20,655 bases of DNA from a virus (lineage: Duplodnaviria; Heunggongvirae; Uroviricota; Caudoviricetes): the IMG/VR virus record IMGVR_UViG_2740892214_000006; one strand, written 5' to 3'. A program made the translations under genes and the position numbers. Under the pieces are notes generated by a model that saw only the letters and a list, made by a program, of their open reading frames with translations, was not told the origin of the DNA and did no database searches. Below are positions 1 through 20,142 of this stretch, piece by piece. Positions within the stretch are counted from its first letter, which is position 1; the number at the start of each line of letters is the position of its first letter.

Positions 1-85
1 AGAAACAGAAGCCACTGGAGCACCTCAAAAACACCATCATACACTAAATCAGTAAGTTGGCAGCATCACCCGTGCCCGAGTCTAT

Positions 86-391
86 ATGCTGCGTACTGGT
101 ATAGAGGGATGGACAGAAAATGACATTCTTCGCTACTGCCGTCTGTCTTCTGGTCGTAACTATGCAACAGAGTTAGAACGCCAGCTTGGAATCACTCTGG
201 AGCGTATCGACGAAAAGAATCCTGATGGTATCGGAACACACCTTCGCTACCGTTTCTCCTGCCGTGGTGATGTTCTGAAAGTGATCACTCATGTTAACCA
301 TCTTGCGAACATAAATGATCACAACGGACTTTCTCAGCAGGAAATTGCCGACATTCTGAAACTCTACCCGGACGCGTTTAACGCCGCCTAA
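86..391 (+). CDS. hypothetical protein (101 aa)
   Basis: First ATG after an in-frame stop at 53-55; ORF ends 12 nt before the next same-strand gene; weak SD; no family recognised. Confidence 0.5.
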   Translation: MLRTGIEGWTENDILRYCRLSSGRNYATELERQLGITLERIDEKNPDGIGTHLRYRFSCRGDVLKVITHVNHLANINDHNGLSQQEIADILKLYPDAFNAA

Positions 392-403
392 CGGAGACTG
401 AAA

Positions 404-1237
404 ATGAACATCGAAAAAAGCAGATTAATTTCTGAGGCCGCCCCTCATCTGAACGCCTCTCTGGGCACAATTAACGGTAATGAATTTGCCGCAATTGTCC
501 CGGTTATTCCTGGTCATATCGGTGGGCGTGAAACCAATATTGTTAGCGCAAAAGCGTTACACAAAGCGTTGGGCGTGGGAAAAGATTTCTCTACATGGAT
601 CACTGATCGCATCTCTGAATATGACTTCACCATTGGGCACGATTACTCAGTCCATAAAACAATCTCCCCAAATTTGGGGAAAAGCCCGAATGGCGCGCCT
701 TACAGCAAGATTAAGCAGTCTGGCAGACCCGGCAAAGACTATCTGTTAAGTGTCGGAATGGCGAAAGAACTGGCAATGATCGAACGCAATGATCAGGGTC
801 GCGCTATCCGTCGTTATTTCATCCAGTGCGAGGAAGAATTACAGCGTAGCGTGCCTGAAATCGCCGCCCGCTATCGTCGCCAGCTAAAAGCCCGTATCAG
901 TGCCGCAAACAACTTTAAGCCAATGTGCGATGCGCTGAATATGGCCCGTGCCGAGATGGGGAAAACGACGCAGCAACACCACTACACAAACGAGAGCAAT
1001 ATGATTTCTCGTATCGTTCTTGGTGGGCTAACTGCTAAGCAGTGGGCGCGGATAAATGGCTATTCTGGCGAACCTCGCGACCATATGAACGCAGAACAGC
1101 TTGAGCACCTCTCATATCTCGAAAGCACCAATATCACGTTAATTGATATGGGCATGGAATATGAGCAGCGCAAAGGAGAACTCACCCGCCTGTCGCAACG
1201 CTGGCTCGCCAAGCGTCTGGAGGCGGTCCATGTTTAA
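404..1237 (+). CDS. phage antirepressor-like regulatory protein (AntA/AntB-type N-terminal domain)
   Basis: 277-aa ORF with SD GGAGAC upstream of ATG 404. N-terminal segment GRETNIVSAKALHKALGVGKDFSTWITDRI resembles the AntA/AntB antirepressor domain as recalled; C-terminal half unassigned. Confidence 0.8.
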   Translation: MNIEKSRLISEAAPHLNASLGTINGNEFAAIVPVIPGHIGGRETNIVSAKALHKALGVGKDFSTWITDRISEYDFTIGHDYSVHKTISPNLGKSPNGAPYSKIKQSGRPGKDYLLSVGMAKELAMIERNDQGRAIRRYFIQCEEELQRSVPEIAARYRRQLKARISAANNFKPMCDALNMARAEMGKTTQQHHYTNESNMISRIVLGGLTAKQWARINGYSGEPRDHMNAEQLEHLSYLESTNITLIDMGMEYEQRKGELTRLSQRWLAKRLEAVHV

Positions 1238-1412
1238 GCCGACAGGAACACCACAACCTCAAAAACGCTACAAAGATGCCCACGGAGCACTCGTTACTGT
1301 CGAAAGCGTGTCTCACAACCGAGTGACGTTTTATCGCGACGGGTATCAATCGCCATGCGTACAACCGCTGGCGCGTTTCATGAAGGAGTTCGCGGAGGTT
1401 AACAAATGCTAA
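1230..1412 (+). CDS. small hypothetical protein (60 aa)
   Basis: ATG 1230 preceded by GGAGG (1219-1223, 6-nt spacer). Start overlaps upstream stop (ATGTTTAA) and stop overlaps next start (ATGCTAA), indicating translational coupling. ORF-track start 1143 is a TTG and probably not used. Confidence 0.5.
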   Translation: MFKPTGTPQPQKRYKDAHGALVTVESVSHNRVTFYRDGYQSPCVQPLARFMKEFAEVNKC

Positions 1413-2434
1413 CCGTCCAGAAGAAGACATTTTCACTGGCTGGTATGTCGCCAAAATACAGCAATATGACAGCAAAGTCAGGCATTAATACAGCAGATAC
1501 AAGCAAAGTTTATCATTTGCTGGTGGTAGGAGCGGATGCCTTAACTATGTCAGAAATTACGGTCGATGGTGTTAGCGTTGAGAAGGTCAGCGGCTGCGCC
1601 AGAGAATTTCTGGTCGTAGATCACCTGTTCTGCTCGTGTAGTGACTCCACAAAAACATTCGTCCACGTGCGTGACGTTAACGAAATGAGCGCGATGTATT
1701 GTGCATCTGGTGCTTCCAATAGTGAGTTTTCGGAGTCCATAAAAAAGAGCTTGCCGTTATGCGGCAACACGGTTTATGGTTATAAGGCACCTCATAAAAC
1801 GGGTGCCGGGATTAGGACCCCGCAGGCAATCGAGGCGATACATGACGCGCCAGCGTCTTTTTTTGTATCGGCGCACACGCACACCTTATCAATGGTGGGC
1901 TGTATGGGGCTGACTTCGGTCAGGCTGGTTTCCTTGATTGCCAGTAGTCCTAACCCTGTACAGTCCACCGCCAGCGAGCTTAGGACCTCCGGCGGTGGCT
2001 ATAAACCATCAATCAAGGAGGCTGCCACATGCTGGCTACTACCCCTACCCAAAAACCGCAATTTATCTGGATTATCGCCGCAGTTCGCCGCGATTGCCCG
2101 ACAATTACCGCCAAAATTCATCATATTGCTGCCGAGTCTGAACGCGATGCTCGCCGTTCTCTGGTGCGCGATCACGTCTGCTTTTTTGCTGGTCGTATCC
2201 GCATGGAGGTGGCACATGATTAAAACCTACGATGTGCATATGGATCCCCTCGAACGCACAAGCCAGATCATCACACTGACAGAAGTGATTAACGACATTC
2301 TGGTGAGCAACTCTCCCTCACGAGACGAAAGGCTGAAGGCGTTACTCGCGATATTGGATCTCGCCGTTCGTGACGTTCATTTCCTGCTGGAAGGTGGACA
2401 AATGCCAGTAAAAACGGGGGCAACCAATGAATAA
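1406..2434 (+). CDS. hypothetical protein; long ORF of uncertain structure (N-terminal ~150 aa protein-like; last 72 codons from ATG 2216 may be a separate gene)
   Basis: ATG 1406 has SD GGAGG (1394-1398) and is coupled to the upstream gene. Frame stays open 1029 nt. Translation of about 1900-2215 looks off-frame-like (L/S/P-rich), and ATG 2216 has its own SD GGAGGTGG. Confidence 0.4.
2029..2223 (+). CDS. small hypothetical protein (64 aa), alternative frame embedded in the long ORF
   Basis: Strong SD AAGGAGG (2015-2021) 7 nt before ATG 2029; stops in this frame at 1981 and 2002 just upstream. Stop TAA 2221-2223 overlaps ATG 2216 (ATGATTAA). Charged, protein-like composition. Confidence 0.35.
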   Translation: MLATTPTQKPQFIWIIAAVRRDCPTITAKIHHIAAESERDARRSLVRDHVCFFAGRIRMEVAHD

Positions 2435-2621
2435 CTCAATTAATACCCCTCGCCTTACGTCCGCACTTCAATTAATCGAGCAAGCAGCGGCTGTCCTGGT
2501 TGCTGTCAGTCTTTCGGCTGAAGAAATGGACGCTGCTGATGTCGTGGATGCGATTAAAGCGTGCTCATCTTTGGTTAACGATGCCCGTGCCGAGCTGGTA
2601 ATTCTTGGGGGTGAAAAATGA
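2427..2621 (+). CDS. small hypothetical protein (64 aa)
   Basis: ATG overlaps upstream stop (ATGAATAA); G-rich SD ACGGGGG upstream; part of a coupled chain of small genes. Confidence 0.55.
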   Translation: MNNSINTPRLTSALQLIEQAAAVLVAVSLSAEEMDAADVVDAIKACSSLVNDARAELVILGGEK

Positions 2622-2881
2622 ATATCAACTCAATTTATCGTCATCCGTGTGAGCTGGAAATTGAATCATTGCTGGGGCGCGAAGAGCCATATCCAGACAC
2701 ATTCACTCCTGCAGATTGCGCGACTGAACGGCTTACCAGAGCGCGCACAGGTCTGGTTCATGTGATGAATGAGATTGTTCCCTCGGTGGGAGGGGAACAG
2801 GCGACAGTAATCAATAGCTGGCTACAAAAAGTTACCTTCCTGATAGATATCGGTTTAATCGATGTGGAGAGTGCGAAATGA
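2618..2881 (+). CDS. hypothetical protein (87 aa)
   Basis: ATGA overlap with upstream stop; SD GGGGGTGA 4 nt upstream. Confidence 0.6.
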   Translation: MNINSIYRHPCELEIESLLGREEPYPDTFTPADCATERLTRARTGLVHVMNEIVPSVGGEQATVINSWLQKVTFLIDIGLIDVESAK

Positions 2882-3099
2882 CCAACATCCAGCTCATTGA
2901 AGCGCAATGTCGCATCGAACAGGTTCAGACTGTTTTAGGGTTCTGGCTTGAAGGGGCCAGCCCAAGCAACAGAGACAAGTTAATGATTGGCGCGGTTATG
3001 TCACTGCTCAATGGCGTACCAGAAGCTATTCAGGAAGCGGACGAATTGTTGGGCAAATATGAGTTACAGAATCATTCAGGCGAGGCGAAACATGAATAA
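2878..3099 (+). CDS. hypothetical protein (73 aa)
   Basis: ATGA overlap with upstream gene; SD GGAGAG upstream. Confidence 0.55.
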   Translation: MTNIQLIEAQCRIEQVQTVLGFWLEGASPSNRDKLMIGAVMSLLNGVPEAIQEADELLGKYELQNHSGEAKHE

Positions 3100-3694
3100 T
3101 TTCTTAACTTTCCATGCAGAAGCAACGCCTGACGGCGTAAACATCATGTACCGCAGCAACGATGGCATGACAGAACGCGTTGAGGCCGTCTCATATATTG
3201 ATGCCGTAAATCGTCTGGATGCCGGGGATTATGACGATAAACCAGATGAAGGTATGTCAATACATCTCGCTATTGCCGATGGCGGCAACCAGGGATATTT
3301 CGATTACACATCACAGCATAACGTCATTATGTGGAGATGGCTGATCGCAACAGTATTCATGCTGGAAATGAGAGAGGAAAACGGCACTGTCAGCATCATT
3401 GATGATACTGGCAATCCTTCCGAAGTGGCTGTTTATTCCAACGGCATCGTCGCCATGCCGCTGTATCCAGTAGCAGAGCGCCTCGCTATGGCAAACAACA
3501 TTGAGGGCGCGATGATAGAACGTTTTGGCATCGAGTCTGGCACAGAACGCGCCATCATTTTCTACAGAGCCATGATGGATGTGGAACAAGGAGCACTGAC
3601 TCCATTTGGTCGTGAAACGCTTGCTGAACTTCACAACAGCTTTATAGCTGAACTGAATGAAAACGGCATGCCAGCGGAACCAGTGACGCACTGA
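3092..3694 (+). CDS. hypothetical protein (200 aa)
   Basis: ATG 3092 overlaps upstream stop (ATGAATAA), SD GAGGCG upstream. The ORF-track start 2987 lies inside the upstream gene and is judged too far 5'. Confidence 0.65.
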   Translation: MNNFLTFHAEATPDGVNIMYRSNDGMTERVEAVSYIDAVNRLDAGDYDDKPDEGMSIHLAIADGGNQGYFDYTSQHNVIMWRWLIATVFMLEMREENGTVSIIDDTGNPSEVAVYSNGIVAMPLYPVAERLAMANNIEGAMIERFGIESGTERAIIFYRAMMDVEQGALTPFGRETLAELHNSFIAELNENGMPAEPVTH

Positions 3695-3704
3695 GGATGG
3701 AGCC

Positions 3705-4046
3705 ATGATTACTAAAAATTTCCGACTGAATGCGCTGGCAAATAAGTATGCGTCGGCACTGTATAACCACATTACCTCCACCAGCGGCGGGGACTATTTC
3801 ATGGTTGATGCGGACGGCGAGGCCGTACGTGTGGAAATCGTCAATGGAGTAAAAGGCGTTCGCAGCCTGATCGATAGCTACACACTGGCAGCCATGAAAG
3901 TGTTCTACCCGCAGTGGGAAACCGTGGGGATCGAGCTTCTTGAGCGTTGCGTCACTAAGGACGGATTGACTGACGTCGGGCGTGAGATATGGCAAAGCAT
4001 GGTTAATGACATGGGCGCAACTGTAGCGGGAGGTTCTCATGCGTGA
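3705..4046 (+). CDS. hypothetical protein (113 aa)
   Basis: SD GAGGATGGAG 5 nt before ATG 3705; starts 10 nt after upstream stop. Confidence 0.65.
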   Translation: MITKNFRLNALANKYASALYNHITSTSGGDYFMVDADGEAVRVEIVNGVKGVRSLIDSYTLAAMKVFYPQWETVGIELLERCVTKDGLTDVGREIWQSMVNDMGATVAGGSHA

Positions 4047-4410
4047 AAATGCAGAAATGGCGCTTAGCTCCGCAATCGGAGAGCAGGTGGCAAAGATTGC
4101 TGGTGCTGTGTGGATTCATAACCTTCATTCTACTGGTGAAGAGAAAATGGCAATTCAGACGCCAGAGGGACGCACCATTACTACATCTCTGAAGCCGTCA
4201 GATGTTTGTGATCTGATTTGCGCATTCATGTACCCAGCAATGAGGACTGTCCACGGCGATAAGTGGAAACTTGCGACAACCGCTGAATTTGATATGTGGC
4301 TAAACAATGATGGCATGCTGACTGATTACGGAATAACCAAGTGGCAGATGCTGGTTAGCCATATCGCAAACGCTATAGACCACGTGGGGTACGGTGATGC
4401 GAAACATTGA
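4039..4410 (+). CDS. hypothetical protein (123 aa)
   Basis: SD GGGAGG upstream of ATG 4039; overlaps upstream stop by 8 nt; stop overlaps primase start region. Confidence 0.65.
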   Translation: MRENAEMALSSAIGEQVAKIAGAVWIHNLHSTGEEKMAIQTPEGRTITTSLKPSDVCDLICAFMYPAMRTVHGDKWKLATTAEFDMWLNNDGMLTDYGITKWQMLVSHIANAIDHVGYGDAKH

Positions 4411-6748
4411 TCTTATCCGTCAGGTTATCAGTGCGTCTGAAAACAACTGGCCTCATGTGCTGGGCTGCCTGAACATAAATGTCCCTGACTCTCCGCGCCA
4501 TCATGCTCCCTGCCCTGCATGTGGGGGCAAAGATCGATTCCGGTTCGATGACAACGGGCGCGGTAGCTTCATCTGTAATCAGTGCGGCGCTGGTGATGGG
4601 CTGGATTTAATTAAACGCGTAAATAACTGCGACACAACAGAGGCGGCGCTTCTTGCCGCTGATGTTCTGGGTATTGATTACCGGACAACGGAAACACCAG
4701 AAGCCACCAGCCAGAAACGGGAACAACTGGAAACCGAGCGCCAGCGACGCGAACAGGAGCGCCTGAAAAGGGCAGAGAAGGATGAACAACAAAGACGGGA
4801 TACGTTTTCCCGTCAGTTTGATGACATGCGCAGAAAGGCTGTAAACGGCAAATCTGATTATCTGGTTGCGAAAGGGGTAGGTGATTTTACATTCCCCGTG
4901 TTGCCAGATGGATCTCTATTGCTGGCGCTGGTGGATAAATCCGGCGCAGTCACAGCAGCACAGACTATTACCTCACATGGTGAAAAAAGACTCCTGACAG
5001 GTTCGGCAAAGCGGGGGGCATATCACGCCATAAACGCACAGAAACGACCTCACAGCATCATAATTGCTGAGGGGGTGGCTACCGCCCTGTCGTGCCATTT
5101 AATTCGCCCTGACGCAATGACAGTGGCAGCAATCGACGCTGGCAACCTGTTGCCAGTAGCGGAAGTCATGCGCAGAACATATCCACAGGCACAAATCATC
5201 ATTGCCGCAGATAACGATCACCAGCAAGGAAACTCCGAAAGTGGAGGGATCAACACGGGGAAAGATGCCGCAGAGAGGGCCGCTATTTCCGTAGCTGGCT
5301 GGGTGTCTCTGCCACCGACTGACTATAAAGCCGACTGGAACGACTATCACCAACAACACGGGCTGGCGGCAGCCACAGCAGCATTTAAAGATTCGATGTA
5401 CCAGCCACGGGGGAAAGGGGCGCAGGTGAAAAATCACAAACAGTCAGTCGGGGCGCTGAATGAGATCAGTTCTGGCGAGGTGTTAAGCGATGATGAAATT
5501 GCTGTCCTCGAAGAAATCAACCGGACGTTTACGCATGTCACCATCGGCGGGAAACACAAGGTGGTGTCGCTAAAGCCTTCTCAAACCGGCGGTGTATCGC
5601 ACGTTTTCGAGGATTTATCACAATTTCAGCATTATTTTCATCATAAACCGAGAGTCGCCAGAAAGCTGGCGGGATCGGCGTGGCTGTCATGGAGTGGGAA
5701 GAACTACAAGCCAGGAGGCGTAGGATTTTATCCAGTACCAGACAAATGCCCTGACGATGTTTTTAATCTGTATGAGGGGCTGGCACTGGAACCAATTGAA
5801 GGAGATTGCACGGTATACCTTAATCACCTGTTGCAGGTTGTCTGTGCCGGTAATGAAGAGGCATACCAATATCTTATCCAGTGGATGGCGCACATTATCC
5901 AAAAGCCTGATGAAAAACCGTCCGTGGCAATCGTGATGAAATCTGTCCCGGGCACAGGGAAAGGCACAACGGTTAAACCACTGCTGCAAATACTGGGGCA
6001 GTACGCCGCCCACATTAACGGGGCGGGACATATTTCAGGGCGCTTCAATTCAATACTTGCTAACAAGCTACTGGTATTTGCTGACGAAGTGACGATCCAC
6101 AAGCCGTCTGAAGCTGACAGACTTAAAGCGATTATTAGCGAACCGACGTTTAACCTTGAGCGCAAGGGAATTGATGCTGAACCAATGCCGAATTTTGCCC
6201 GGTTGATATTTGCCAGTAACAGCACACAGGTATTACAGGCAGGGATAAGAGAGCGTCGCTATCTCGTGCTTGAGCCATCTCCTGAAAAAGCACAGAGCCG
6301 GGAGTATTTTGATCGGCTGTACAGTTGGCTTAATGATGGCGGTGCCGCAAAGTTGCTTTGGCATCTTAAAGGGGTGGATCTCTCAGGTTTTGACCCTCAA
6401 CGAGCGCCACAGACCGATGCCTTACGTGAAGAAATCTTGCTGGGGCTGTCTGGCGTTGAATTGTTTCTTTATGGCGAGCTAATCAATGAACCTCCGTTTA
6501 ATGGCGAAGTCCGTTTGTTTGCAAAGGATATGGTTAGTCGATTTGTAGCGTGGTCGCTTGAGCGTGGGGAAAAGCTTAAAGAACCAGCAGCCAGATCACT
6601 ACTGGGTAAATCACTTGCACAAATGGGGCTGGTGAAGCATGGAAGACCAGACCGAGGGAATGGCGTGTTCTACGAACTACCAGAGGTCGGAGTTCTACAG
6701 GCTGCGTTTGCCCGTCTGATCGGTATGGGGGGATATGATGTTTTTTAA
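4394..6748 (+). CDS. P4-alpha-type DNA primase / SF3 helicase (replication initiator)
   Basis: 784-aa ORF (GTG 4394 or ATG 4397). N-terminal zinc ribbon CPACGG...CNQCG, TOPRIM-like motifs IIIAEGVATAL and IIIAADNDH, C-terminal Walker A SVPGTGKGTT and Walker B LLVFADEV. Iteron clusters lie immediately downstream. Confidence 0.95.
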   Translation: MMRNIDLIRQVISASENNWPHVLGCLNINVPDSPRHHAPCPACGGKDRFRFDDNGRGSFICNQCGAGDGLDLIKRVNNCDTTEAALLAADVLGIDYRTTETPEATSQKREQLETERQRREQERLKRAEKDEQQRRDTFSRQFDDMRRKAVNGKSDYLVAKGVGDFTFPVLPDGSLLLALVDKSGAVTAAQTITSHGEKRLLTGSAKRGAYHAINAQKRPHSIIIAEGVATALSCHLIRPDAMTVAAIDAGNLLPVAEVMRRTYPQAQIIIAADNDHQQGNSESGGINTGKDAAERAAISVAGWVSLPPTDYKADWNDYHQQHGLAAATAAFKDSMYQPRGKGAQVKNHKQSVGALNEISSGEVLSDDEIAVLEEINRTFTHVTIGGKHKVVSLKPSQTGGVSHVFEDLSQFQHYFHHKPRVARKLAGSAWLSWSGKNYKPGGVGFYPVPDKCPDDVFNLYEGLALEPIEGDCTVYLNHLLQVVCAGNEEAYQYLIQWMAHIIQKPDEKPSVAIVMKSVPGTGKGTTVKPLLQILGQYAAHINGAGHISGRFNSILANKLLVFADEVTIHKPSEADRLKAIISEPTFNLERKGIDAEPMPNFARLIFASNSTQVLQAGIRERRYLVLEPSPEKAQSREYFDRLYSWLNDGGAAKLLWHLKGVDLSGFDPQRAPQTDALREEILLGLSGVELFLYGELINEPPFNGEVRLFAKDMVSRFVAWSLERGEKLKEPAARSLLGKSLAQMGLVKHGRPDRGNGVFYELPEVGVLQAAFARLIGMGGYDVF

Positions 6749-6778
6749 TATAGTCTTTTTACAAGAAGATCGTTTTTA

Positions 6779-6881
6779 CCTGTACCACCTATACCACTTT
6801 GCTAATTCAGCATTAAAAACAGTGCGTTATAGTGGTACAGGTCAATATCTTACCTATACCAGACCTGTACCACCTATACCA
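6779..6881. repeat. iteron cluster 1 (candidate origin / cis replication region)
   Basis: 18-bp direct repeat CCTGTACCACCTATACCA at 6779-6796 and 6864-6881, with an inverted core copy TGGTACAGG at 6832-6840; immediately 3' of the primase gene. Confidence 0.6.
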
Positions 6882-6924
6882 TTAACAAACGCATTTCTTC
6901 TGGCTGGCTGAGAGGGAACAACCA

Positions 6925-7155
6925 ATGATGAGCACACCATTTTACAAAGTGCGCCAGTTAGCTTCTTCCTCTGGCTGGCAGCTACGGTTTGAGGGGCGTT
7001 CAGACTGGCTACCCATTGCGGCATGGGCGAATGTTGAAATGTGTATTGACGGCGATACCGTTGAAATCATTATTCCCTGCGTGGCAAGTCGGGACGGCTG
7101 TATAGAGCCAACAGATATGGCAGCAGAAATCAGAGAGGTAAAACATGAACAATAA
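6925..7155 (+). CDS. hypothetical protein (76 aa)
   Basis: SD GAGGGAA upstream of ATG 6925 (second ATG at 6928); 11-nt overlap with the next gene. Confidence 0.5.
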   Translation: MMSTPFYKVRQLASSSGWQLRFEGRSDWLPIAAWANVEMCIDGDTVEIIIPCVASRDGCIEPTDMAAEIREVKHEQ

Positions 7156-7882
7156 CTATTGCATACCGCAGGGAATGACCAGAACGGAGCGCGAAGAATT
7201 AAAAAGTTTCGCTACACAGTGCGGGAATGCTGGCGACATCCAAAGTCTGGAACGCACTTTAATTATGATTGCGCACTGGATGCGCCAGGGGCAAAGAGTT
7301 TCATTTACTGAATATGCCAGCCAGTGGACAGAGGCACAGCGCGAACGGAGCGACGGTAATCACTCAACACCCGAAATGGCGAAGCAATGGCCTTTCAGTG
7401 GTAAACGCTGTATCAGTCCCGGTGGTTCAGATTATTACCCTGCTGGTGTGGGAGATGAGCCATGTTGTGACGAGACTGAAATCCGCCACGCAGTGACAGT
7501 AATTACCGCTGAATACCCACAATTTAACCTTGACGGACTGGCGCTCCACAACCGGAATGCGGACTGGGAAAACCCGCTTGATAACCCATCATTTATCGTA
7601 TCGGCGAAAAGCTGCCTGAAATGGATCAGAGATAACGGGATGAGTAATGCCCAGATTGAGAGCTTCCCGCAGGATAACCCCACATCTGACACGTTGAAGC
7701 ATGAAGTGGAGCGATATAACCAGATAAACCACCAGCACAGTGATCACCCGCACTATATCCCCAACGGAGCATTTATTGCGGCGATGGTGGCAAGCGGCTA
7801 CAAGGTTAAGCCAGCGGGAAGAATGAACGCATTTTTCAATATTTCAAAAAAGGGATTATGTGCTGCTATGGGTAAAAATTAA
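7145..7882 (+). CDS. hypothetical protein (245 aa)
   Basis: SD GAGAGG upstream of ATG 7145; protein-like composition; no family recognised; flanked by both iteron clusters. Confidence 0.65.
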   Translation: MNNNYCIPQGMTRTEREELKSFATQCGNAGDIQSLERTLIMIAHWMRQGQRVSFTEYASQWTEAQRERSDGNHSTPEMAKQWPFSGKRCISPGGSDYYPAGVGDEPCCDETEIRHAVTVITAEYPQFNLDGLALHNRNADWENPLDNPSFIVSAKSCLKWIRDNGMSNAQIESFPQDNPTSDTLKHEVERYNQINHQHSDHPHYIPNGAFIAAMVASGYKVKPAGRMNAFFNISKKGLCAAMGKN

Positions 7883-7887
7883 ATAAA

Positions 7888-7991
7888 TGGTACAGGTCTG
7901 TACAGGTGGGGAGAGGTCATTTTTACCCACCTGTACCACCTGCAGGCCGCGCCACACAAGGGTTTGTGACATGGTGGTACAGGTGGTACAG
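7888..7991. repeat. iteron cluster 2 (candidate origin / cis replication region)
   Basis: Core copies in both orientations: TGGTACAGGT 7888-7897, CTGTACAGGTGG 7898-7909, CACCTGTACCACCTG 7928-7942, GGTGGTACAGGTGGTACAG 7973-7991; shares CCTGTACCACCT with cluster 1. Confidence 0.6.
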
Positions 7992-8356
7992 CAAAAACAG
8001 CGATTTTCTTTATAAGGTATGTTTTGCTCATCTGGCAGACGGAGGTATTCGCTGCGGTTTGGCACGTAGCCCAGAACAGCAAAGAGTTTTACGAGACTTT
8101 TGTAAAATCCAGTGTACAAGGGCGTGACGTTTTTGAAGGAGAGACCTACGAAATTTTCGTAGTTCAAAAAATAGCCTCTGAGATGTTGTTATGCCTGTTC
8201 AGCAAACCATCCGCATAGCTGATCGCGAATCAAATTACCAATGGAGCCAGAAGCAAGGGCAGAACTGGAAAGCGCCTGCCGTGAAGAGTAATGCGACATC
8301 ATAAATATAGTTTTTAGAGTCCATAAAAAACCTGTCAAAACCTGACATACAGAACG

Positions 8357-8390
8357 ATGCCACCAGCTACTGAGCGGTGGCATTTTTTTG
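8357..8390 (+). terminator. rho-independent terminator
   Basis: 8-bp stem ATGCCACC / GGTGGCAT (8357-8364, 8376-8383) with 11-nt loop, followed by a 7-T run (8383-8389). Confidence 0.6.
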
Positions 8391-8419
8391 TGCTATTTGT
8401 TTCATATTTTGCAATCACA

Positions 8420-8455
8420 ATGATGAATGTTGCGTTTTATGAAACTATAATGACT
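8420..8455 (+). promoter_or_regulatory. candidate promoter for the RHH-led operon
   Basis: Perfect TATAAT at 8446-8451 about 35 nt upstream of ATG 8485 in an AT-rich stretch after the terminator; the -35 element is poor. Confidence 0.3.
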
Positions 8456-8484
8456 GTTGTTTTATACAGTTCTAAGGGGGCGTT

Positions 8485-8646
8485 ATGGCTATTTCAGTAA
8501 AGCCGGTATTGATAAGTGAGAAGCAAATGGAAGCGATAAAGAAAATTCAGGAAGAGCAGCGTAAAAAATCAGGAATTGGAGTAGCGCCAACTCTGCATGA
8601 AATTGCACGAGGGTTAATAGATAAGGCGCTGGCAGGCTGTATGTGA
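8485..8646 (+). CDS. ribbon-helix-helix (Arc/MetJ/CopG-like) small DNA-binding protein (53 aa)
   Basis: Below the ORF-track size cutoff. SD AAGGGGG 5 nt before ATG 8485, in-frame stop at 8473-8475. Predicted beta-strand then two helices (VKPVLISEKQMEAIKKIQEEQRK..KSGIG..VAPTLHEIARGLIDKAL). Confidence 0.6.
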   Translation: MAISVKPVLISEKQMEAIKKIQEEQRKKSGIGVAPTLHEIARGLIDKALAGCM

Positions 8647-8662
8647 AAATGGATGGCATCGC

Positions 8663-9124
8663 ATGGAACTAAAATTTATTGATAACCCTGTGCGATTACA
8701 GGCCTTTCTTAACGAGCCAGGCAATACCGAAAATATTGTTGAGCCGGGGCACACGTACTACATCAAGCCTGATGCGGTATATCTCGGCATCTACGAAGGA
8801 TTAGTGCTGGCTGGCGTTCATGAAGTGCGTAACTTCTGGCATAGCGTTGTTGAATGCCATGCGGTGTACGACCCCGGATTCCGTGGTGAATATGCACTGC
8901 AAGGACATCGATTATTCTGCAAATGGCTTCTCGAAAACTCACCATTCCTTAACAGCATCACTATGGTTCCTGACACCACGAAATACGGACGGGCAATTAT
9001 CCGTTTGCTTGGCGCTACCCGTGTTGGTCACCTTGATGATGCTTATATCAGATGTGGTAAACCCGTCGGCGTAACGCTTTATCAGTTAACTCGGCAACAA
9101 TATAAGGAATTCAGCGAATGTTAA
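8663..9124 (+). CDS. hypothetical protein (153 aa); positional analogue of P22 gp14
   Basis: First gene of a coupled four-gene chain; stop overlaps the next start (ATGTTAA). Function inferred only from position. Confidence 0.7.
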   Translation: MELKFIDNPVRLQAFLNEPGNTENIVEPGHTYYIKPDAVYLGIYEGLVLAGVHEVRNFWHSVVECHAVYDPGFRGEYALQGHRLFCKWLLENSPFLNSITMVPDTTKYGRAIIRLLGATRVGHLDDAYIRCGKPVGVTLYQLTRQQYKEFSEC

Positions 9125-9795
9125 TTACCCATATAGCTCATAAACATCTCAATCGTGCCGTATACGAAAAAGGCGGTGATGGTGGTGCCTCTAAAGCTCA
9201 GGCGAAGGCCCAGCAGCAGGCAATTGATTTGCAGCGCGAGCAGTGGAATACGGTGATGAATAATCTCAAGCCGTATGCAGAAGTCGGATTGCCTGCTTTA
9301 CAACAACTGCAAGGACTGATGACTCTGGAAGGGCAGAATAAAGCCGCGAATGATTTCTTTGGTTCTGGTTTATATAAAACACAGGCAGATCAGGCCCGTT
9401 ATCAGAACCTTGTCTCAGCAGAAGCTACCGGGGGGCTTGGCTCAACAGCTACCAGTAACCAGTTATCTTCCATTGCGCCCATGCTTTATAACAATTGGCT
9501 CAGTGGGCAAATGCAAAATTATGGAAACCTGCTAAATGTCGGGATGAATGCGGCATCAGGGCAGGCAACAGCAGGGCAAAACTACGCCAATAATACCGGG
9601 CAACTCTTGCAGGGGCTTGGCGCTATTCGTGCAGGTCAGGCGCAGCAGCCATCCAGTCTTGCGCGTGGTATTGGTGGGGCGGCATCAGGCGCTTTAGCGG
9701 GTGCGCAACTTGGTTCCGTTGTTCCGGGTATAGGTAATGTCGCCGGGGCTATTGGTGGTGGGCTTATTGGTCTTGTTGGGGGGCTTGGATTCTAA
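9118..9795 (+). CDS. putative virion internal/ejection protein (P22 gp7-like by size, order and composition)
   Basis: 225 aa, with Q/N/G/A-rich low-complexity and a Gly-rich hydrophobic C-terminus (GIGGAASGALAGAQLGSVVPGIGNVAGAIGGGLIGLVGGLGF). SD AAGGA upstream; TAATG overlap with the next gene. Confidence 0.75.
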   Translation: MLITHIAHKHLNRAVYEKGGDGGASKAQAKAQQQAIDLQREQWNTVMNNLKPYAEVGLPALQQLQGLMTLEGQNKAANDFFGSGLYKTQADQARYQNLVSAEATGGLGSTATSNQLSSIAPMLYNNWLSGQMQNYGNLLNVGMNAASGQATAGQNYANNTGQLLQGLGAIRAGQAQQPSSLARGIGGAASGALAGAQLGSVVPGIGNVAGAIGGGLIGLVGGLGF

Positions 9796-11093
9796 TGGCG
9801 ACATGGCAACTTGGCGGGCTGCCTAGCATGGCACCGCAAAATGATAATGCTCCTCGTTCTTCCGTTCTTCAGCCTGTGCAGTATCAGCAGCAGCCAAACG
9901 TAGGTTTAATGGCGCTACAGGGGCTAAGAGGCGTTGCTGAGATTAATCAGCAGGCACGTCAACAACAGCGTAAAGCAGAGTTTCAGAAAGCATATGCCGG
10001 GGCTTTTGAGTCTGGAGACAGAAACAAAATGCGCAGTCTTATTTCTGAGTATCCAGAAGAATTTGAAAGCGTTCAGAAAGGGATGGGCTTTATTGATGAC
10101 GACCAGAGAAATTCTATTGGTCATCTTGCGACTAGTGCTCAAATCGCATCTTCGCTCGGAACTGGGGCATTTGGAAAATTCATAGCAGATAACGAAGATG
10201 AAATGCGTCGCTTGGGAATTTCTCCTGAGTCTGTTGCCGAAATGCATGTTAATGATCCACAGGGATTCCAGCGGCTTGCTGGTAGTATGGCACTGTTTTC
10301 TCTCGGTCATGAGAAGTATTTCGATATCAAAGATCAAATGGAAGGTCGTCGACTTGAGCAAGGGCGACTGGATGAAAGTATGCGTCAGGCTGACATGGAG
10401 AACGCGAGAGGATGGGCAAATATCCAGAACGCTCAACTAGACAGGGCTCAGCGAGCACAAATTCACTCAGATGAGATGGGATTGAAGCTAATGGAGCTGG
10501 GGCAAAAAGGTAAGCCGTCAGCAGACTTAATTAAGGGATTAAATTCTGACATTACCAATTTTGGCAAAAATTATAACTCTGTCAGAGCGGCGGCAAACTC
10601 TCTGCAAGCCCTTAGCAAGGTAAATACTGGCGCTGCCCAACTTGGGATTATCTTCAACTACATGAAATCTCTTGACCCGCAGTCAGTCGTTCGTGAAGGC
10701 GAACAGGTTCAGGTAATGCGGTCTGATGGCATATGGGGACAAATCAAAGGATACATAGACCAGCTTAATGCTGGAAACGGCCTGTCGCAGGAGGCAAAGG
10801 ATAACATTGTTAACGCCGCAAAAATCAACGCCAATGCTATGGGGCAGCAGTTTAACCAGCAGGTTGACGAGTATCTCGATACATATGGAGAAACTATTCC
10901 TCAGGGGCTAAGAAAAAGCCTTGAAAGAAGGAAAGCGAAGCTATTTGACGATGTTTCCGGGCAGCCTACATCACAGGCTGGCACTGGACAGGCAAAAGCG
11001 GCAACCGGAGGAATATCAGAAGGCGCAACGGCAACCAACCCTAAAACTGGTCAGAAAATCATTTACAGGAACGGAAAATGGCAGCAAATGTAA
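9795..11093 (+). CDS. putative virion internal/ejection protein (P22 gp20-like by size, order and composition)
   Basis: 432 aa, Q-rich N-terminus, coupled to flanking genes by overlapping start/stop; composition typical of podovirus ejection proteins. Confidence 0.8.
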   Translation: MATWQLGGLPSMAPQNDNAPRSSVLQPVQYQQQPNVGLMALQGLRGVAEINQQARQQQRKAEFQKAYAGAFESGDRNKMRSLISEYPEEFESVQKGMGFIDDDQRNSIGHLATSAQIASSLGTGAFGKFIADNEDEMRRLGISPESVAEMHVNDPQGFQRLAGSMALFSLGHEKYFDIKDQMEGRRLEQGRLDESMRQADMENARGWANIQNAQLDRAQRAQIHSDEMGLKLMELGQKGKPSADLIKGLNSDITNFGKNYNSVRAAANSLQALSKVNTGAAQLGIIFNYMKSLDPQSVVREGEQVQVMRSDGIWGQIKGYIDQLNAGNGLSQEAKDNIVNAAKINANAMGQQFNQQVDEYLDTYGETIPQGLRKSLERRKAKLFDDVSGQPTSQAGTGQAKAATGGISEGATATNPKTGQKIIYRNGKWQQM

Positions 11094-13195
11094 TCTTACC
11101 GGAAGGTTTTGTGCTCGATGAACAACCTGATAACTCACAGTTTCCTGATAGTTCACAGCTTCCTGATGGTTTTGTGCTTGATGCCCAACCAGAACAGCAG
11201 CAATCACCTTTGGTTTCACCAGAGGAAAATTCCAGACAGGAAAATGTTGTTAATAATGCTAACGGTTTCGACCGTTTTATGTATGGCGTTCTCAGTGGAT
11301 TGATGGATGTTGGTAAAGGTGTTGGCCTGTTTCAGGATATGACACCAGAAGAGCAAGCCGCAATTCAGTCTCTACAGCAGAAGTTAGCGGCAAAACCATC
11401 AACCGCACAAGATGTTGGTGAGTTCGTTGGACAAGCAGCGCCATTTGTTAGTGGTGGTGGGATTATTTCTCAGGTTCCCAAAGGGGCGGCAAGACTGGCT
11501 GCCGCCGCAGGGCTTGGTGCTGGAGAAGGGGCTATTGTAGCCAATGGAACAAATAGCGATGTTGCTTCCGGCGCTGCTATTGGCGCTGTGGCTGGCCCTG
11601 TAGCCGAACTTGCTGGCCCTGCAATTAATAAAATAGCTGGGAAATTAACCAAGAAGAATGTTTCTTCGATTCCAGATATTGAGGGGATTACTCCTGCCGA
11701 AGAGAAAATTCGTAAGTTATCTGCACAAGGCAACCCAAATCTTGCCTCTTCGCTTGAAGGGCTAGATCTAAAACCTCAGAAAGAAATTGTTGAGGCTGCA
11801 AATAGGCTTCATGTTGATTCAGTTCTTCCTTCTCATTTATCAGGAAATGAGCAATACCAAGCTGTAGAGCAAGCCCTAAAGTCACGGACAGGATCAGCGT
11901 TAAAAGCTCAAGAAGATAAAGCAATAAGCGAATTAGCCTCTAGTGCTGGCAAGATAATCGATGATGTTGCTGGTGCGCCAGATGCGTTAGCTATGAGCGA
12001 AAAATATATTTATCAGATAAATAGTAGAATGGAAGCACTAAAAAACCGTAGTGATCAGTTATATAAACGTGTTGATTCCGCTCTATCACCAAGAACAAAA
12101 GTCGAAGCAAATAACACAAGCACTATGCTGGAAAAAATCGCTGATGATTTAGGAGGGTGGGATAATCTTGACCCAATAGAAAAGCGAGTTTTTACAGCAA
12201 TAAACCCCGGCCCAGATAGCATCCTAACGTATGCAAATTTAAACAGGCAAAGGCGTTTAGTTGGTGATGCCCTAAATAAAAAGCAGGGGCCATACAAAGA
12301 TGCTGATAAAGAAGCGCTATCAAGACTATATGGAGCTTTAGCTGAAGACCAAAAATCTGTCTTATCCAATACTGGATACTTGCGAGATTTCGAAGTCGCA
12401 CAACGCCTTGTAGCTATGAGAAAAAACTTAGAAAGGCAAATGGTAAATCTTCGCGGGAAAACACTTAATGGGGATATAGCGTATAAAGTAACGAATTCTC
12501 TTCAATCTATGGCAAAAGGTGATGCGAGAGGGTTTCGTGAGATTATGCAAAATACTCCATCAAGAACATTGCGAAGGGAGCTAGTAGGAACAGCATTAAG
12601 AGATATACTTTCCTCTGGGAAGCGTGGGGCCGACTTTAATCCATCTGGCTTTGCAGATTGGTGGCAAAACTTGCAACACAGTGGACAGCTAAAGACTTTG
12701 GCTGAACATTTGCCAAAAGAAACAATGAGCGGACTATATGATGTATACAAAGTTGCCAGAGCAATAAAAAATGCTAAAGCGCATGAAATATCTACTGGTA
12801 AGCTGAATGAGTTTGTAAACAGATTTAATCGGGTAACAGCTCCATACGAACTAGCAGCAAAACACATTCAAAAAATAGGCACGATGGTAGGCGCTCATTT
12901 TGGATCGCTTGGAGCCATTGCTGGGGCTGATATTGGAGCAAGATTGGCGAGTAAAGCTCGATTAGCTGGTGGAGCAGGGGCGGCTGATGCTGCGGATAAA
13001 TTAATTGCCTCGCCAGCCTTCCAGAGCGCAGTAAAAAATCTACACGGAAAAGCGCCTGGGCACATTGTTGATTCACGTATCAGGCGCTCCCCTCAATGGA
13101 AGAGTTTTTTTAACTCTCTTCCTGAACAGGAAAAACGGACCATCGCCAGACTGGGCATCATTACTTGGCTATCTAATGATCCAGATAATGACTAG
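11078..13195 (+). CDS. putative virion internal/ejection protein (P22 gp16-like by size, order and composition)
   Basis: 705 aa; SD AGGAACGG upstream, start overlaps previous gene by 16 nt. N-terminal tandem repeat LPEGFVLDEQP / LPDGFVLDAQP; Gly/Ala-rich blocks flank a lower-GC central part. Confidence 0.8.
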   Translation: MAANVILPEGFVLDEQPDNSQFPDSSQLPDGFVLDAQPEQQQSPLVSPEENSRQENVVNNANGFDRFMYGVLSGLMDVGKGVGLFQDMTPEEQAAIQSLQQKLAAKPSTAQDVGEFVGQAAPFVSGGGIISQVPKGAARLAAAAGLGAGEGAIVANGTNSDVASGAAIGAVAGPVAELAGPAINKIAGKLTKKNVSSIPDIEGITPAEEKIRKLSAQGNPNLASSLEGLDLKPQKEIVEAANRLHVDSVLPSHLSGNEQYQAVEQALKSRTGSALKAQEDKAISELASSAGKIIDDVAGAPDALAMSEKYIYQINSRMEALKNRSDQLYKRVDSALSPRTKVEANNTSTMLEKIADDLGGWDNLDPIEKRVFTAINPGPDSILTYANLNRQRRLVGDALNKKQGPYKDADKEALSRLYGALAEDQKSVLSNTGYLRDFEVAQRLVAMRKNLERQMVNLRGKTLNGDIAYKVTNSLQSMAKGDARGFREIMQNTPSRTLRRELVGTALRDILSSGKRGADFNPSGFADWWQNLQHSGQLKTLAEHLPKETMSGLYDVYKVARAIKNAKAHEISTGKLNEFVNRFNRVTAPYELAAKHIQKIGTMVGAHFGSLGAIAGADIGARLASKARLAGGAGAADAADKLIASPAFQSAVKNLHGKAPGHIVDSRIRRSPQWKSFFNSLPEQEKRTIARLGIITWLSNDPDND

Positions 13196-15887: not shown

Positions 15888-16430
15888 ATGTACCAGCTAA
15901 AGATAACCATCCGAGACAGCAAACCACCTATATGGCGGCGTGTGCTGGTTCCAGAGCAAATCCCCTTTAGTAAACTTCATGCCGTGATCCAGTTAGCTTT
16001 TGGCTGGAATGACGAACACCTGTATATGTTCGAGAAAGGGCGTAAAGGTGATCCAGGTAGCGAGTATCGCGTATGGGGTGAGGATGAAAGCATGGGTAAC
16101 GCGGCAATCACGCCACTATGGGCGGCGCTCCAGAATGAGGGTGACAAGCTGGTTTACACGTATGACTTTGGCGACTGGTGGGATTGCGTCATTGTGCTGG
16201 AGAAGCAAACACACGATACGAGTAATCAGCCCATTAGCTGCCTGCGTGGGAAAGGCACCACCCCGGCGGAAAACTCAGGCGGCTTGCATGGTTACAATGA
16301 ATTGCTATTACAGGCCAGAGAGTCTGATAATCCTGAGCAGGCCGAGATCCACAATTTCCTGATGCTGGATATTGAACGCCGGGTTTACGACCTGAGCCGC
16401 ATCAACGACAGATTGCAGGCTATTTACTGA
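15888..16430 (+). CDS. plasmid pRiA4b ORF-3-like (PRiA4_ORF3) domain protein (180 aa)
   Basis: N-terminal YQLKITIRDSKPPIWRRVLVP...LH.VIQ.AFGW..EHLYMF matches the PRiA4_ORF3 signature as recalled; AGGA 5 nt before ATG. Confidence 0.8.
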   Translation: MYQLKITIRDSKPPIWRRVLVPEQIPFSKLHAVIQLAFGWNDEHLYMFEKGRKGDPGSEYRVWGEDESMGNAAITPLWAALQNEGDKLVYTYDFGDWWDCVIVLEKQTHDTSNQPISCLRGKGTTPAENSGGLHGYNELLLQARESDNPEQAEIHNFLMLDIERRVYDLSRINDRLQAIY

Positions 16431-18177: not shown

Positions 18178-18404
18178 TTTCTTTCCTCTGTTATGCCATC
18201 ACCCGCGCTCACCTGGACAGTATGCAGCGGAGACTGAAGAGCCGCAATGCAGGCTTGTCGTGTTGTGAGGTAAGGAGATTTATTCTTAGTGGGATCTTTG
18301 CGTGTTGCCTGAAGACGCCCTGTGCGTATCCAGTTAATGGCAGTCGGTCTGGATATCTTGAGAAAATGACAGGCCTCATCGAGTGTGAGGCTGTATGGCT
18401 CCAT
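18054..18404 (-). CDS. xis: excisionase, P22-type
   Basis: 116 aa from ATG 18404 (the ORF-track start 18488 is upstream); SD GAGGTGA before ATG; [33 protein letters not shown] is excisionase-like; 3' end overlaps the int start by 124 nt. Confidence 0.85.
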
Positions 18405-19598: not shown

Positions 19599-19639
19599 TT
19601 TGTTCTCCACGTATATGCGCTGCACCGCGCTGAATTCGG

Positions 19640-20140: not shown

Positions 20141-20142
20141 AA

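Follow-up and report, generated by a model that had tools for sequence, protein, structure and literature searches.

The window (the whole 20,655-bp stretch of DNA that was analysed) carries a primase-helicase gene, whose product is referred to below as the replicase, followed by two clusters of short repeats with two small protein-coding genes nested between them. The features needed below are the following, a repeat unit being CCTRTACC/GGTAYAGG, with '+' meaning that GGTAYAGG lies on the + strand:

4397–6748, + strand: primase-helicase (RefSeq start at 4397; the mechanical ORF start is a GTG at 4394)
5419–8082, + strand: exchangeable replication module: helicase/C-terminal half of the replicase, the two clusters, p76 and p245
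6749–6778, no strand: A/T tract from the primase stop to half A, 77% A+T, the mirror of the tract at 7993–8030
6779–6880, no strand: cluster 1, candidate origin half A, with six 8-bp units at 6779–6786 (−), 6788–6795 (−), 6834–6841 (+), 6853–6860 (−), 6864–6871 (−) and 6873–6880 (−)
6797–6832, no strand: internal spacer of half A, 36 bp, 67% A+T against 52% in the window; candidate melting region
6925–7155, + strand: p76, hypothetical protein of 76 aa in the RefSeq E. coli annotation, nested between the halves
7145–7882, + strand: p245, hypothetical protein of 245 aa in the RefSeq E. coli annotation; its start overlaps the end of p76
7889–7992, no strand: cluster 2, candidate origin half B, with five units at 7889–7896 (+), 7899–7906 (+, degenerate, TGTACAGG), 7930–7937 (−), 7976–7983 (+) and 7985–7992 (+, GGTACAGC)
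7938–7975, no strand: spacer of half B, 38 bp, G+C-rich
7993–8030, no strand: A/T tract after the last tandem pair, beginning CAAAAACAGCGATTTTCTTTATAAGG, 71% A+T; candidate unwinding/start region

The gene content of the window is that of an EcCIMP1-like phage-inducible chromosomal island (PICI) of E. coli, a kind of element of about 10–18 kb: integrase, AlpA/HTH regulator, primase and PerC genes are present and transcribed in one direction, the gene layout matches that published for EcCIMP1, and there is no full set of phage structural and lysis genes in the island (RefSeq context of loci L001–L003; Pfam, PHROGs). The downstream module is P22-like (DUF2824/gp14, gp7, gp20 and a gp16-like protein), and the EcCIMP1 paper describes PICIs of this family as mobilised by a P22-like phage; it contains no description of an origin. 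None of the ∼25 ORFs scanned belongs to the sid, psu or delta families, so the element is not a P4-like satellite.

The first repeat unit, at 6779, begins 30 bp past the replicase stop at 6748, which places the repeats immediately 3′ of the initiator gene, as had been noticed in an earlier examination of the bare sequence (the sequence-only reading). A window-wide count, proposed there as a check, gave six exact copies of the core GGTACAGG/CCTGTACC (at 6779, 6834, 6864, 7889, 7930 and 7976) against the 0.26 expected from dinucleotide-preserving shuffles, none of 100 of which reached six; every copy is confined to the clusters at 6779–6880 and 7889–7992. When one mismatch was allowed, five further units appeared within the clusters (GGTATAGG at 6788, 6853 and 6873, TGTACAGG at 7899 and GGTACAGC at 7985), giving 11 in total, six on the − strand and five on the + strand, while the remaining 19 one-mismatch matches were dispersed over the other ∼20 kb. 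The two clusters and the presence of both orientations thus agree with the sequence-only reading, as does the 12-mer that it saw in both clusters (CCTGTACCACCT, at 6779–6790, 6864–6875 and 7930–7941); its count of at least eight copies has to be replaced by six exact ones, or 11 with one mismatch. Another recurring motif, TTCTGGCWGGC, had five matches in the window against 0.89 expected. Megablast of the region against a phage collection found no match, and Rfam searches at gathering thresholds found no RNA family in 6700–8700, the sole hits being C4 and isrK near 1.8 kb.

The two clusters form an inverted duplication of a single ∼135-bp unit: reverse-complementing half A brings it into register with half B (61% identity over 130 columns; alignment score 25.5, shuffles giving −21.8 ± 4.8). 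The unit opens with two or three direct iterons and one inverted iteron; a 38-bp spacer separates these from a 9-bp tandem pair, and an A/T tract closes it. As the two copies are inverted, their tandem pairs and A/T tracts point outward. The 1.0 kb of DNA between the iteron sets is coding and about 50% G+C, and the A/T-rich stretches are moderate (67–77%), namely the 36-bp spacer within half A (67%) and the tracts at the outer ends (71–77%). Searches of 6700–8100 for DnaA boxes (TTATCCACA with at most one mismatch, or TTWTNCACA) and for the IHF consensus found none, which is to be expected if the initiator is self-sufficient.

The replicase would be an initiator of that type. Its N-terminal part is a Zn-ribbon and Toprim primase, followed by a DUF5906 helicase of superfamily 3 (SF3) and, at the C-terminus, by a helical/beta-hairpin domain; the Pfam matches are to Zn_Ribbon_Prim, Toprim_3 and DUF5906, the PHROGs match to DNA primase. 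An AlphaFold2 model of residues 345–784 contains the SF3 helicase and the C-terminal domain, the latter with a pLDDT of 85–93. When this C-terminal half was compared as a whole with Foldseek (alignments of ∼350–530 columns, the C-terminal domain lying within it), matches were obtained to the NrS-1 helicase region (E = 8e-10), SaPI1 Rep1 (7PDS, 1.5e-6) and SaPI5 PriRep5 (7OLA, 1.3e-5). SaPI PriRep5 and Rep1 are self-loading initiators whose C-terminal winged helix binds iterons (PMC9371898). The modelled fold suits a self-loading SF3 initiator with a C-terminal DNA-binding domain. A search of PDB sequences with the C-terminal 132 residues returned nothing meaningful, and no match to P4's 1KA8.

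The repeats are conserved together with the replicase. Repeated copies of the core TGGTACAG follow directly on the stop codon of a homologous DUF5906 replicase in Salmonella, Raoultella, Buttiauxella, Xenorhabdus, Moellerella, Methylobacter and Alishewanella; altogether the core is conserved in at least 17 loci of Enterobacterales, Methylococcales and Alteromonadales, whose replicase C-terminal halves are 46–81% identical to that of the window, and in most of these ∼13-kb loci almost all exact copies fall at that place. The same offset of the iterons from the replicase stop was found in at least 20 related loci. The positions and orientations of the half A units (from +27/+32 to +113/+128 past the stop) are kept in six enterobacterial genera, Xenorhabdus, Moellerella and Methylobacter, and the half B spacing, (+) ∼41 (−) ∼43 (+)(+) ending in the 9-bp tandem pair, in Salmonella, Buttiauxella, Xenorhabdus and Methylobacter. 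The invariant columns of the alignment are the iterons; spacer sequence diverges between genera, the length of the half A spacer being retained, and the motif CAAAAAnnGCGATTTT downstream of the tandem pair is retained all the way from E. coli to Methylobacter.

What lies between the halves varies. They are parted by p76 and p245 in the window and by p76 alone in Xenorhabdus, and are at most ∼120 bp apart in relatives that lack p76. The repeats do not depend on either gene, as loci devoid of both (L014, L015, L020–L022 and L030) still carry them. These maps bear on the outermost units, which form a 24-nt inverted repeat (6774–6797/7974–7997, 88% complementary, 1.18 kb apart) accompanied by subterminal repeats and could on that ground be the ends of a mobile cassette of the Tn7 or Mu kind that carries the two genes. 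The comparative maps led to the rejection of this idea, now a highly improbable one: the repeats always abut the stop of a replicase of this family, in the same order, across bacterial orders; there is nothing between them in L021, L015 and L030, only p76 in Xenorhabdus, and p245 may lie outside; hardly any exact copies occur in other parts of the loci; and p76 and p245 match no transposase or recombinase family.

Both halves are kept together in E. coli, Salmonella, Raoultella, Buttiauxella, Xenorhabdus and Methylobacter. Some relatives have half A only (L005, L038) or half B only (L009), which counts against a two-part origin: either one half suffices or these copies have decayed, and cooperation of the halves is putative. 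The smallest relatives (L026, L027 and L030) have four iterons within 50 bp. Such single-half and minimal variants would suit an arrangement in which just one cluster is the origin and the other is an auxiliary site in cis where no initiation takes place, acting as an enhancer in the manner of P4 crr or negatively on copy number ('handcuffing'); P4 itself has one ori, with the same iterons recurring in a separate crr. This division of labour appears unlikely, since each half is an inverted copy of the other and has its own tandem pair and A/T tract, so that neither looks specialised, and since the two are conserved together in the six genera listed, from E. coli to Methylobacter.

Both small ORFs that the sequence-only reading placed inside the origin region exist and are annotated in RefSeq E. 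coli genomes. Neither p76 nor p245 has a match in Pfam, PHROGs (apart from one marginal), NCBIfam, PADLOC or PDB sequences. Homologs of p76 lie between the halves in Pantoea, Buttiauxella, Raoultella, Salmonella, Enterobacter and Xenorhabdus; where present, the gene is always nested there, and its dN/dS of 0.05–0.28 indicates purifying selection. A p76 profile run against 1.8 billion representative proteins returned only 10 matches and no distant relatives, and four close sequences were usable for its alignment. The behaviour of p245 differs: in Xenorhabdus it lies outside the repeats, and elsewhere it follows unrelated AAA_25 replicases, which speaks against the suggestion that it is a replication accessory; p76 may be one.

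The link between repeats and replicase is also seen among sister islands of E. coli, which are 95–99% identical on both flanks of an exchanged block. Homology to one of these (L002) covers 71–5418 of the window at 94.6% and resumes from 8083 at 98.7%; in place of 5419–8082, L002 has a DUF927 helicase half with iterons of its own, GTTGGTTCA, in a compact origin where an A/T-rich spacer lies between three GTTGGTTCA and three copies in inverse orientation. Islands with an AAA_25 replicase have AAGTGGGKA repeats in the equivalent position, and an Endozoicomonas replicase that is 33% identical to that of the window is accompanied by ∼10 copies of yet another repeat, ACCTGATAC. Because sister islands differ in the helicase half and, at the equivalent place, in the iterons, the comparison indicates that the iteron sequence is specific to the cognate helicase half and inherited with it, and that EcCIMP1-type replication modules are swapped as helicase half and origin together.

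This linkage also bears on other functions that such repeats could have. Transcriptional operators for p76–p245 and the P22-like operon downstream, with the origin elsewhere, might be expected where cluster 1 is found, upstream of p76, and where cluster 2 is found, in a stretch of ∼600 bp with no gene annotated before the next operon; with no terminator between primase and p76, a bound protein could act as a roadblock. The P22-like module, however, is 98.7% identical in sister islands with wholly different repeats, the clusters stand directly together past the replicase in relatives without p76 and p245, and the terminator and A/T-rich promoter-like region of the next operon lie 370–480 bp beyond cluster 2. 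The operator model was set aside because a promoter/terminator scan found no sigma-70-like promoter at either cluster and no terminator from the primase to 8366, and it is very unlikely to be correct. A packaging (pac) or partition site is hardly credible. Satellites do need a packaging site in cis for the helper phage, and centromere-like sites do contain short repeats, but the repeats change with the helicase module and not with the conserved P22-like, packaging-side module, the scanned ORFs yielded no homolog of ParA/ParB or TerS, and position and layout fit known Rep-bound origins.

Taken together, the findings make it probable (we would put it at about 0.75) that each cluster is one half of the origin from which an EcCIMP1-like PICI replicates vegetatively, and that the island's own replicase binds there. 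The origin proposed by the sequence-only reading has in this way gained comparative support from the repeat–replicase linkage, the conserved layout and the P4-ori order of elements, and has lost its accessory-gene part as far as p245 is concerned. In the scheme that we infer, after induction and excision of the island the primase-helicase would bind the TGGTAYAGG iterons through its C-terminal domain, and hexamers would assemble on units of opposite orientation. Bridging the 1.0 kb between these would need protein-mediated looping, such as has been described for P4 ori and crr. The replicase would then melt an adjacent A/T-rich stretch, load itself and prime with its own Toprim domain, and a host polymerase would complete theta replication. 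The ancestral origin was probably compact, p76, and in some cases also p245, having come between the halves in the enterobacterial lineage.

A more elaborate proposal, tentative and rather doubtful, is that of a split origin in which inverted P4-ori-like units cooperate over 0.04–1.0 kb of arbitrary DNA through looping by the replicase, each loading one outward- or inward-facing hexamer, and in which p76 is an initiation regulator embedded in the origin (for example a copy control like that of P4 Cnr, or expression coupled to origin occupancy). Were it true, the element order common to P4 and the family of the window would point to an ancient loading geometry common to satellite primase-helicases, because that order is shared though the helicase halves show no BLAST similarity.

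In practical terms, EcCIMP1-type islands, for which no origin had been described, gain an assigned candidate. Primase–origin pairs of PICIs and P4 serve as conditional replicons for phage-delivered payloads (PMC11338833); the DUF5906 replicase and TGGTAYAGG would add a third specificity, an orthogonal pair next to the DUF927 and AAA_25 sister systems, on one backbone. The relatives also provide a natural series (a 50-bp four-iteron origin, adjacent halves, a one-gene split and a two-gene split) that makes testable a long-standing question about P4, namely the cooperation of separated iteron clusters and the spacing tolerated between them.

Among known systems, P4 is the one to which the sequence-only reading compared the locus. 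In the P4 record (NC_001609), type-1 repeats TGTTCACC/GGTGAACA form crr, directly downstream of alpha, and ori, ∼4.5 kb away. The likeness holds for the presence of two separate clusters of the same octamer-type iteron, one of them adjoining the replicase gene (crr in P4, half A in the window), and for the order of elements in P4 ori, which also has 9-bp tandem pairs and runs through direct iterons, one inverted iteron, a 35–38-bp spacer, a tandem pair and an A/T tract. It does not extend to the C-terminal half of the replicase or to the island genes. Alpha shares the N-terminal Zn-ribbon/Toprim primase (32% identity over 335 residues), only residues 8–338 aligning; BLAST of the C-terminal 440 residues against alpha found no similarity, and the NCBIfam model of the P4 primase C-terminus, TIGR01613, scored 20.4 bits against a cutoff of 108.7. 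The annotated record bears out the remark that the iterons differ in sequence (TGGTAYAGG in the window, GGTGAACAG in P4): the units of the window are CCTRTACC/GGTAYAGG and not the type-1 iteron TGTTCACC. The clusters of the window are, moreover, inverted copies 1.0 kb apart and both downstream of the replicase gene, whereas the P4 ori is 4.5 kb distant, upstream of the operon, and crr consists of a direct duplication of 120 bp.

The DUF927 and AAA_25 sister islands share the backbone and the position of the origin with the window, and the DUF927 sister also shares the 9-bp tandem periodicity, its unit GTTGGTTCA agreeing with GGTGGTACA at 7/9 positions. Their origins differ in being compact (about 115–400 bp), with no interruption and an evident A/T-rich centre; p76 is missing from them, and p245, if present, is downstream of the whole origin. 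Iteron plasmid origins (RepA/pi/TrfA), in which DnaA boxes and IHF sites adjoin the iterons and host DnaA and DnaB loading are required, are set apart by the lack of DnaA and IHF sites in 6700–8100 and by an initiator that is an SF3 helicase-primase.

In the textbook PICI origin, two iteron sets flank an A/T-rich centre. The origins of SaPIs (SaPI1, SaPIbov1, SaPI5) and, by description, of EcCICFT073 resemble the candidate in lying immediately 3′ of the initiator gene, in having short iterons in both directions (at least two each) whose sequence is specific to the Rep type, and in relying on a self-loading SF3 helicase, predicted here, which carries a DNA-binding domain at its C-terminus and, like that of SaPI5, is fused to a primase; rightward transcription in one direction and the integrase, AlpA-like, primase and PerC genes are further traits that the window shares with PICIs. 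The window is unlike them in that its iteron sets are 1.0 kb apart, with two protein genes and no short A/T-rich centre between them, each set being composite, with internal inverted iterons and an A/T tract of its own; its units are of 8–11 bp rather than penta- or hexanucleotides; and its helicase domain is DUF5906, with 10–13% identity to SaPI Reps at fold level. Right after rep is the canonical origin position in SaPIs and Gram-negative PICIs (PMC9371898; PMC6092414), and a plasmid maintenance assay has been published for the pri-rep-ori region of EcCICFT073 (PMC6092414). Because the likeness to alpha is N-terminal only and the island is EcCIMP1-like with P22-like genes, assignment to PICIs and SaPIs is preferred over P4: the best reading of the locus is a PICI/SaPI-type origin with a split, P4-like layout, most likely a known kind of origin in a new layout rather than a new kind of system.

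Two clusters of TGGTAYAGG-type repeats (iterons), here called half A and half B, follow the gene for the DUF5906 primase-helicase (the replicase), and two small genes lie between them:

4394/4397-6748 (+): replicase
6779-6880: half A, with exact cores at 6779, 6834 and 6864 and the one-mismatch unit GGTATAGG at 6788, 6853 and 6873
6925-7155: gene for a 76-aa product (p76)
7145-7882: gene for a 245-aa product (p245)
7889-7992: half B, with exact cores at 7889, 7930 and 7976 and the one-mismatch units TGTACAGG at 7899 and GGTACAGC at 7985

The repeat finding is real. The six copies of the exact core GGTACAGG/CCTGTACC are the only ones in the 20,655 bp of the window, 0.26 being expected, and none of 100 dinucleotide-preserving shuffles contained six. 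The sequence-only reading had counted at least eight, a figure reached only when degenerate copies are included; the genome-wide count confirmed the enrichment, and the remainder of its description was correct, including the 12-mer CCTGTACCACCT common to both clusters (6779, 6864 and 7930). Allowing one mismatch added the five units listed, the remaining 19 such matches being scattered across the other ~20 kb. Units frequently form 9-bp tandem pairs (ACCTGTACCACCTATACCA at 6778 and 6863; GGTACAGGTGGTACAGC at 7976), the outermost of which generate a 24-nt inverted repeat (6774-6797/7974-7997; 88% complementary). When reverse-complemented, half A lined up in register with half B, 61% of 130 columns being identical; the global score was 25.5, against –21.8 ± 4.8 for 500 shuffles, and half A in forward orientation scored –3. 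Both halves also share the element order of the ori of satellite phage P4: two or three direct iterons, an inverted one, 35-38 bp of spacer, a tandem pair and an A/T tract, the last two facing outward in each half. The alignment and this common order argue that the clusters are a single composite unit duplicated in inverted orientation. In half B, the 38-bp spacer that separates the inverted iteron from the last tandem pair (7938-7975) is G+C-rich (61%), unlike its A/T-rich equivalent in half A; Buttiauxella and Methylobacter share part of its sequence (gctacaggccgcgcc...), and the Xenorhabdus spacer is A/T-rich.

A scan with an alignment of replicase C-terminal halves (A1), using one genome per species, returned 27 loci. 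The top repeated 8-mer right 3′ of the replicase was TGGTACAG/CTGTACCA in Buttiauxella, Xenorhabdus (six species), Moellerella, Methylobacter, Methylomonas and Alishewanella; in the majority of these loci, no more than one exact core within ~13 kb lay anywhere else. Measured from the stop codon, the units keep the same places and orientations across loci:

Half A, ~+20 to +128 after the stop: (–)(–), ~37-bp spacer, (+), (–)(–)(–)
Half B: (+)[(+)], ~41 bp, (–), ~43 bp, (+)(+), then CAAAAAnnGCGATTTT

Three extra loci fetched by protein identity gave the same picture, with both halves kept in Raoultella (L036) and Salmonella (L037) and half A only in Enterobacter (L038). In multi-genus alignments the invariant columns were the iterons, while the spacers diverged. 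Endozoicomonas (L031), the replicase of which is only 33% identical, carries ~10 copies of another repeat, ACCTGATAC, in one orientation first and the opposite orientation after.

Of 5,426 complete E. coli genomes, 130 matched the 1.8-kb region at 97-99% identity over at least 80% of its length; megablast against the phage collection gave no match. Its E. coli setting is a ~17-kb island adjoining a tyrosine integrase and encoding an HTH regulator, an AntA antirepressor, an Ash-family protein, the 'DUF5906' primase-helicase, two hypothetical proteins, P22-like ejection-protein homologs, Abi and PerC. Pfam and PHROGs assigned Zn_Ribbon_Prim, Toprim_3 and DUF5906 to the 4394-6748 product, and DUF2824/gp14, gp7, gp20 and a gp16-like protein to 8663-13195. 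Gene content and order match those of EcCIMP1, an E. coli PICI known from the literature that the P22-like phage Kapi1 mobilises; the paper on it gives no origin (PMC11773190). The P22 gp14, gp7 and gp20 homologs and the 705-aa gp16-like protein (+ strand) make up the ejection set of the presumed P22-like helper; a satellite with its own ejection proteins is unusual, and the EcCIMP1 paper noted these genes only as 'DNA transfer' candidates (PMC11773190). Rfam placed isrK (1787-1863, 63 bits) and C4 antisense RNA (1888-1975, 80 bits) in tandem on the + strand inside the Ash-family ORF (1406-2434), 3′ of the AntA antirepressor, an arrangement resembling, in a PICI, the RNA-controlled antirepressor switch of P1 immI or Gifsy-1. 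Past the island, a PRiA4_ORF3-like gene (15888-16430), a second tyrosine integrase (17014-18177, – strand) and small prophage-type genes (DUF551, YfbR-like; 17014-20577 with the integrase) suggest that another integrated element, possibly a prophage, abuts the PICI.

A more sensitive search found several hundred further E. coli genomes that match only from 8083 on. Two sister islands (L002, L003) are homologous to window 71-5418 and again from 8083 (95-99% identity). The window's block that is swapped in them (5419-8082, compared with 9069-11000 of L002) holds both clusters, both small genes and the part of the replicase gene that encodes its helicase and C-terminal half. The sister replicase joins the shared N-terminal primase domain (85% identity, 45% of the query) to a DUF927 helicase, and directly after its stop codon come three 9-bp tandem GTTGGTTCA, a ~40-bp A/T-rich spacer and three inverted TGAACCAAC, by its sequence a predicted origin of textbook form. 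Islands with an AAA_25 replicase carry AAGTGGGKA repeats at the equivalent place. Since the iterons differ with DUF927 or AAA_25 replicases while the P22-like side is constant, the repeats change with the helicase half. The breakpoint falls inside the replicase coding sequence, past residue ~342; E. coli and Klebsiella islands thus join a single conserved primase domain to DUF5906, DUF927 or DUF5906+D5_N helicase halves. That the repeats are operators conflicts with both the swap and the comparative maps and is improbable; the same evidence leaves very little chance that the inverted repeat marks the ends of a mobile cassette, and a pac or par site, with which it also conflicts, is highly improbable.

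The distance between the halves differs among relatives. At loci without p76 (L014, L015, L020, L021, L022) the gap is at most ~120 bp, and in L026, L027 and L030 the entire origin is four iterons, (–)(–)(+)(+), in 50 bp. In Xenorhabdus the halves lie ~300 bp apart and enclose a p76 homolog alone; a separation of 1.0 kb, with p76 and p245 both inside, is seen in E. coli, Buttiauxella (L006), Raoultella and Salmonella. The suggestion that both genes may be replication accessories finds no support for p245: its homologs lie 3′ of half B in Xenorhabdus L009 and L010, and in L032 and L035 they follow the whole origin that belongs to an unrelated replicase, which makes p245 a 'post-origin' island gene, not an origin component. 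Where present, p76 is always between the halves; its dN/dS (0.05-0.28) indicates a real gene. It has no family annotation, and its family is tiny (12 clusters in one search; 10 matches among 1.8 billion representative proteins). The motif TTCTTCTGGCTGGC occurs around p76 (6895-6908, 6966-6979, and on the – strand 7315-7328 and 7809-7823) and adjoins the origin in relatives (L008, L014, L015), also where p76 is absent; TTCTGGCWGGC with up to one mismatch has five matches in the window, versus 0.89 expected.

Some relatives keep a single half. Pantoea stewartii (L005) and Enterobacter L038 retain half A and p76 and lack half B, p245 being truncated in the former; Xenorhabdus ehlersii (L009) retains p76 and half B and has lost most of half A. 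These natural deletion variants are either decayed replicons or a sign that one half suffices. They favour one half being an auxiliary or handcuffing site, which we regard as unlikely though worth keeping in mind.

No terminator was found from the primase until 8366-8390, and a promoter scan gave no match at either cluster; p76 and p245 thus seem to share a transcript with the primase, and occupancy of the origin could, speculatively, also modulate their expression. The stretch 8083-8484, without an annotated gene and ~98% identical in the sister islands, holds paired palindromes (TACGAGACTTTTGTA/TACGAAATTTTCGTA), a 37-codon ORF (8191-8304) and the strong intrinsic terminator at 8366-8390, after which the DNA 5′ of the next operon has a G+C content of 28-30%; the region's RNA fold z-score is –2.1.

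An AlphaFold2 model of replicase residues 345-784 (mean pLDDT 74; 85-93 over the last ~110 residues) matched the NrS-1 helicase region, DNA-bound SaPI1 Rep1 (7PDS) and SaPI5 PriRep5 (7OLA). Module swap, conserved layout, unit structure and replicase fold give good computational support to the prediction, already made in the sequence-only reading, that the clusters are a replication origin. The C-terminal domain of the replicase would bind the TGGTAYAGG units, hexamers assembling on the two inverted units, which, 1 kb apart, might be bridged by looping; the replicase could then melt a nearby A/T-rich stretch (6749-6778 and 6797-6832, or 7993-8030), load itself and prime synthesis. No DnaA box or IHF site was found around the origin (6700-8100). 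We found no description of such replicase specificity in the PICI/SaPI literature looked at.

In the annotated P4 genome, crr directly follows alpha and ori lies at a distance of 4.5 kb; the units of both are GGTGAACA/TGTTCACC, frequently arranged as 9-bp tandem pairs. Likeness to the alpha protein is confined to the primase domain (32% identity over 335 residues); BLAST against alpha returned nothing in the C-terminal half of the replicase, which scored far under the cutoff of the NCBIfam P4-family model. SaPI initiators are described as having their origin immediately 3′ of rep, with 6-12 iterons that flank an A/T-rich region, two or more per side and in opposite directions, bound by a C-terminal winged helix without ATP or loader (PMC9371898); Gram-negative PICIs are reported to share this organisation, with a functional pri-rep-ori test (PMC6092414). 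The predicted origin is of this PICI/SaPI type, in a split, P4-like layout with two genes embedded.
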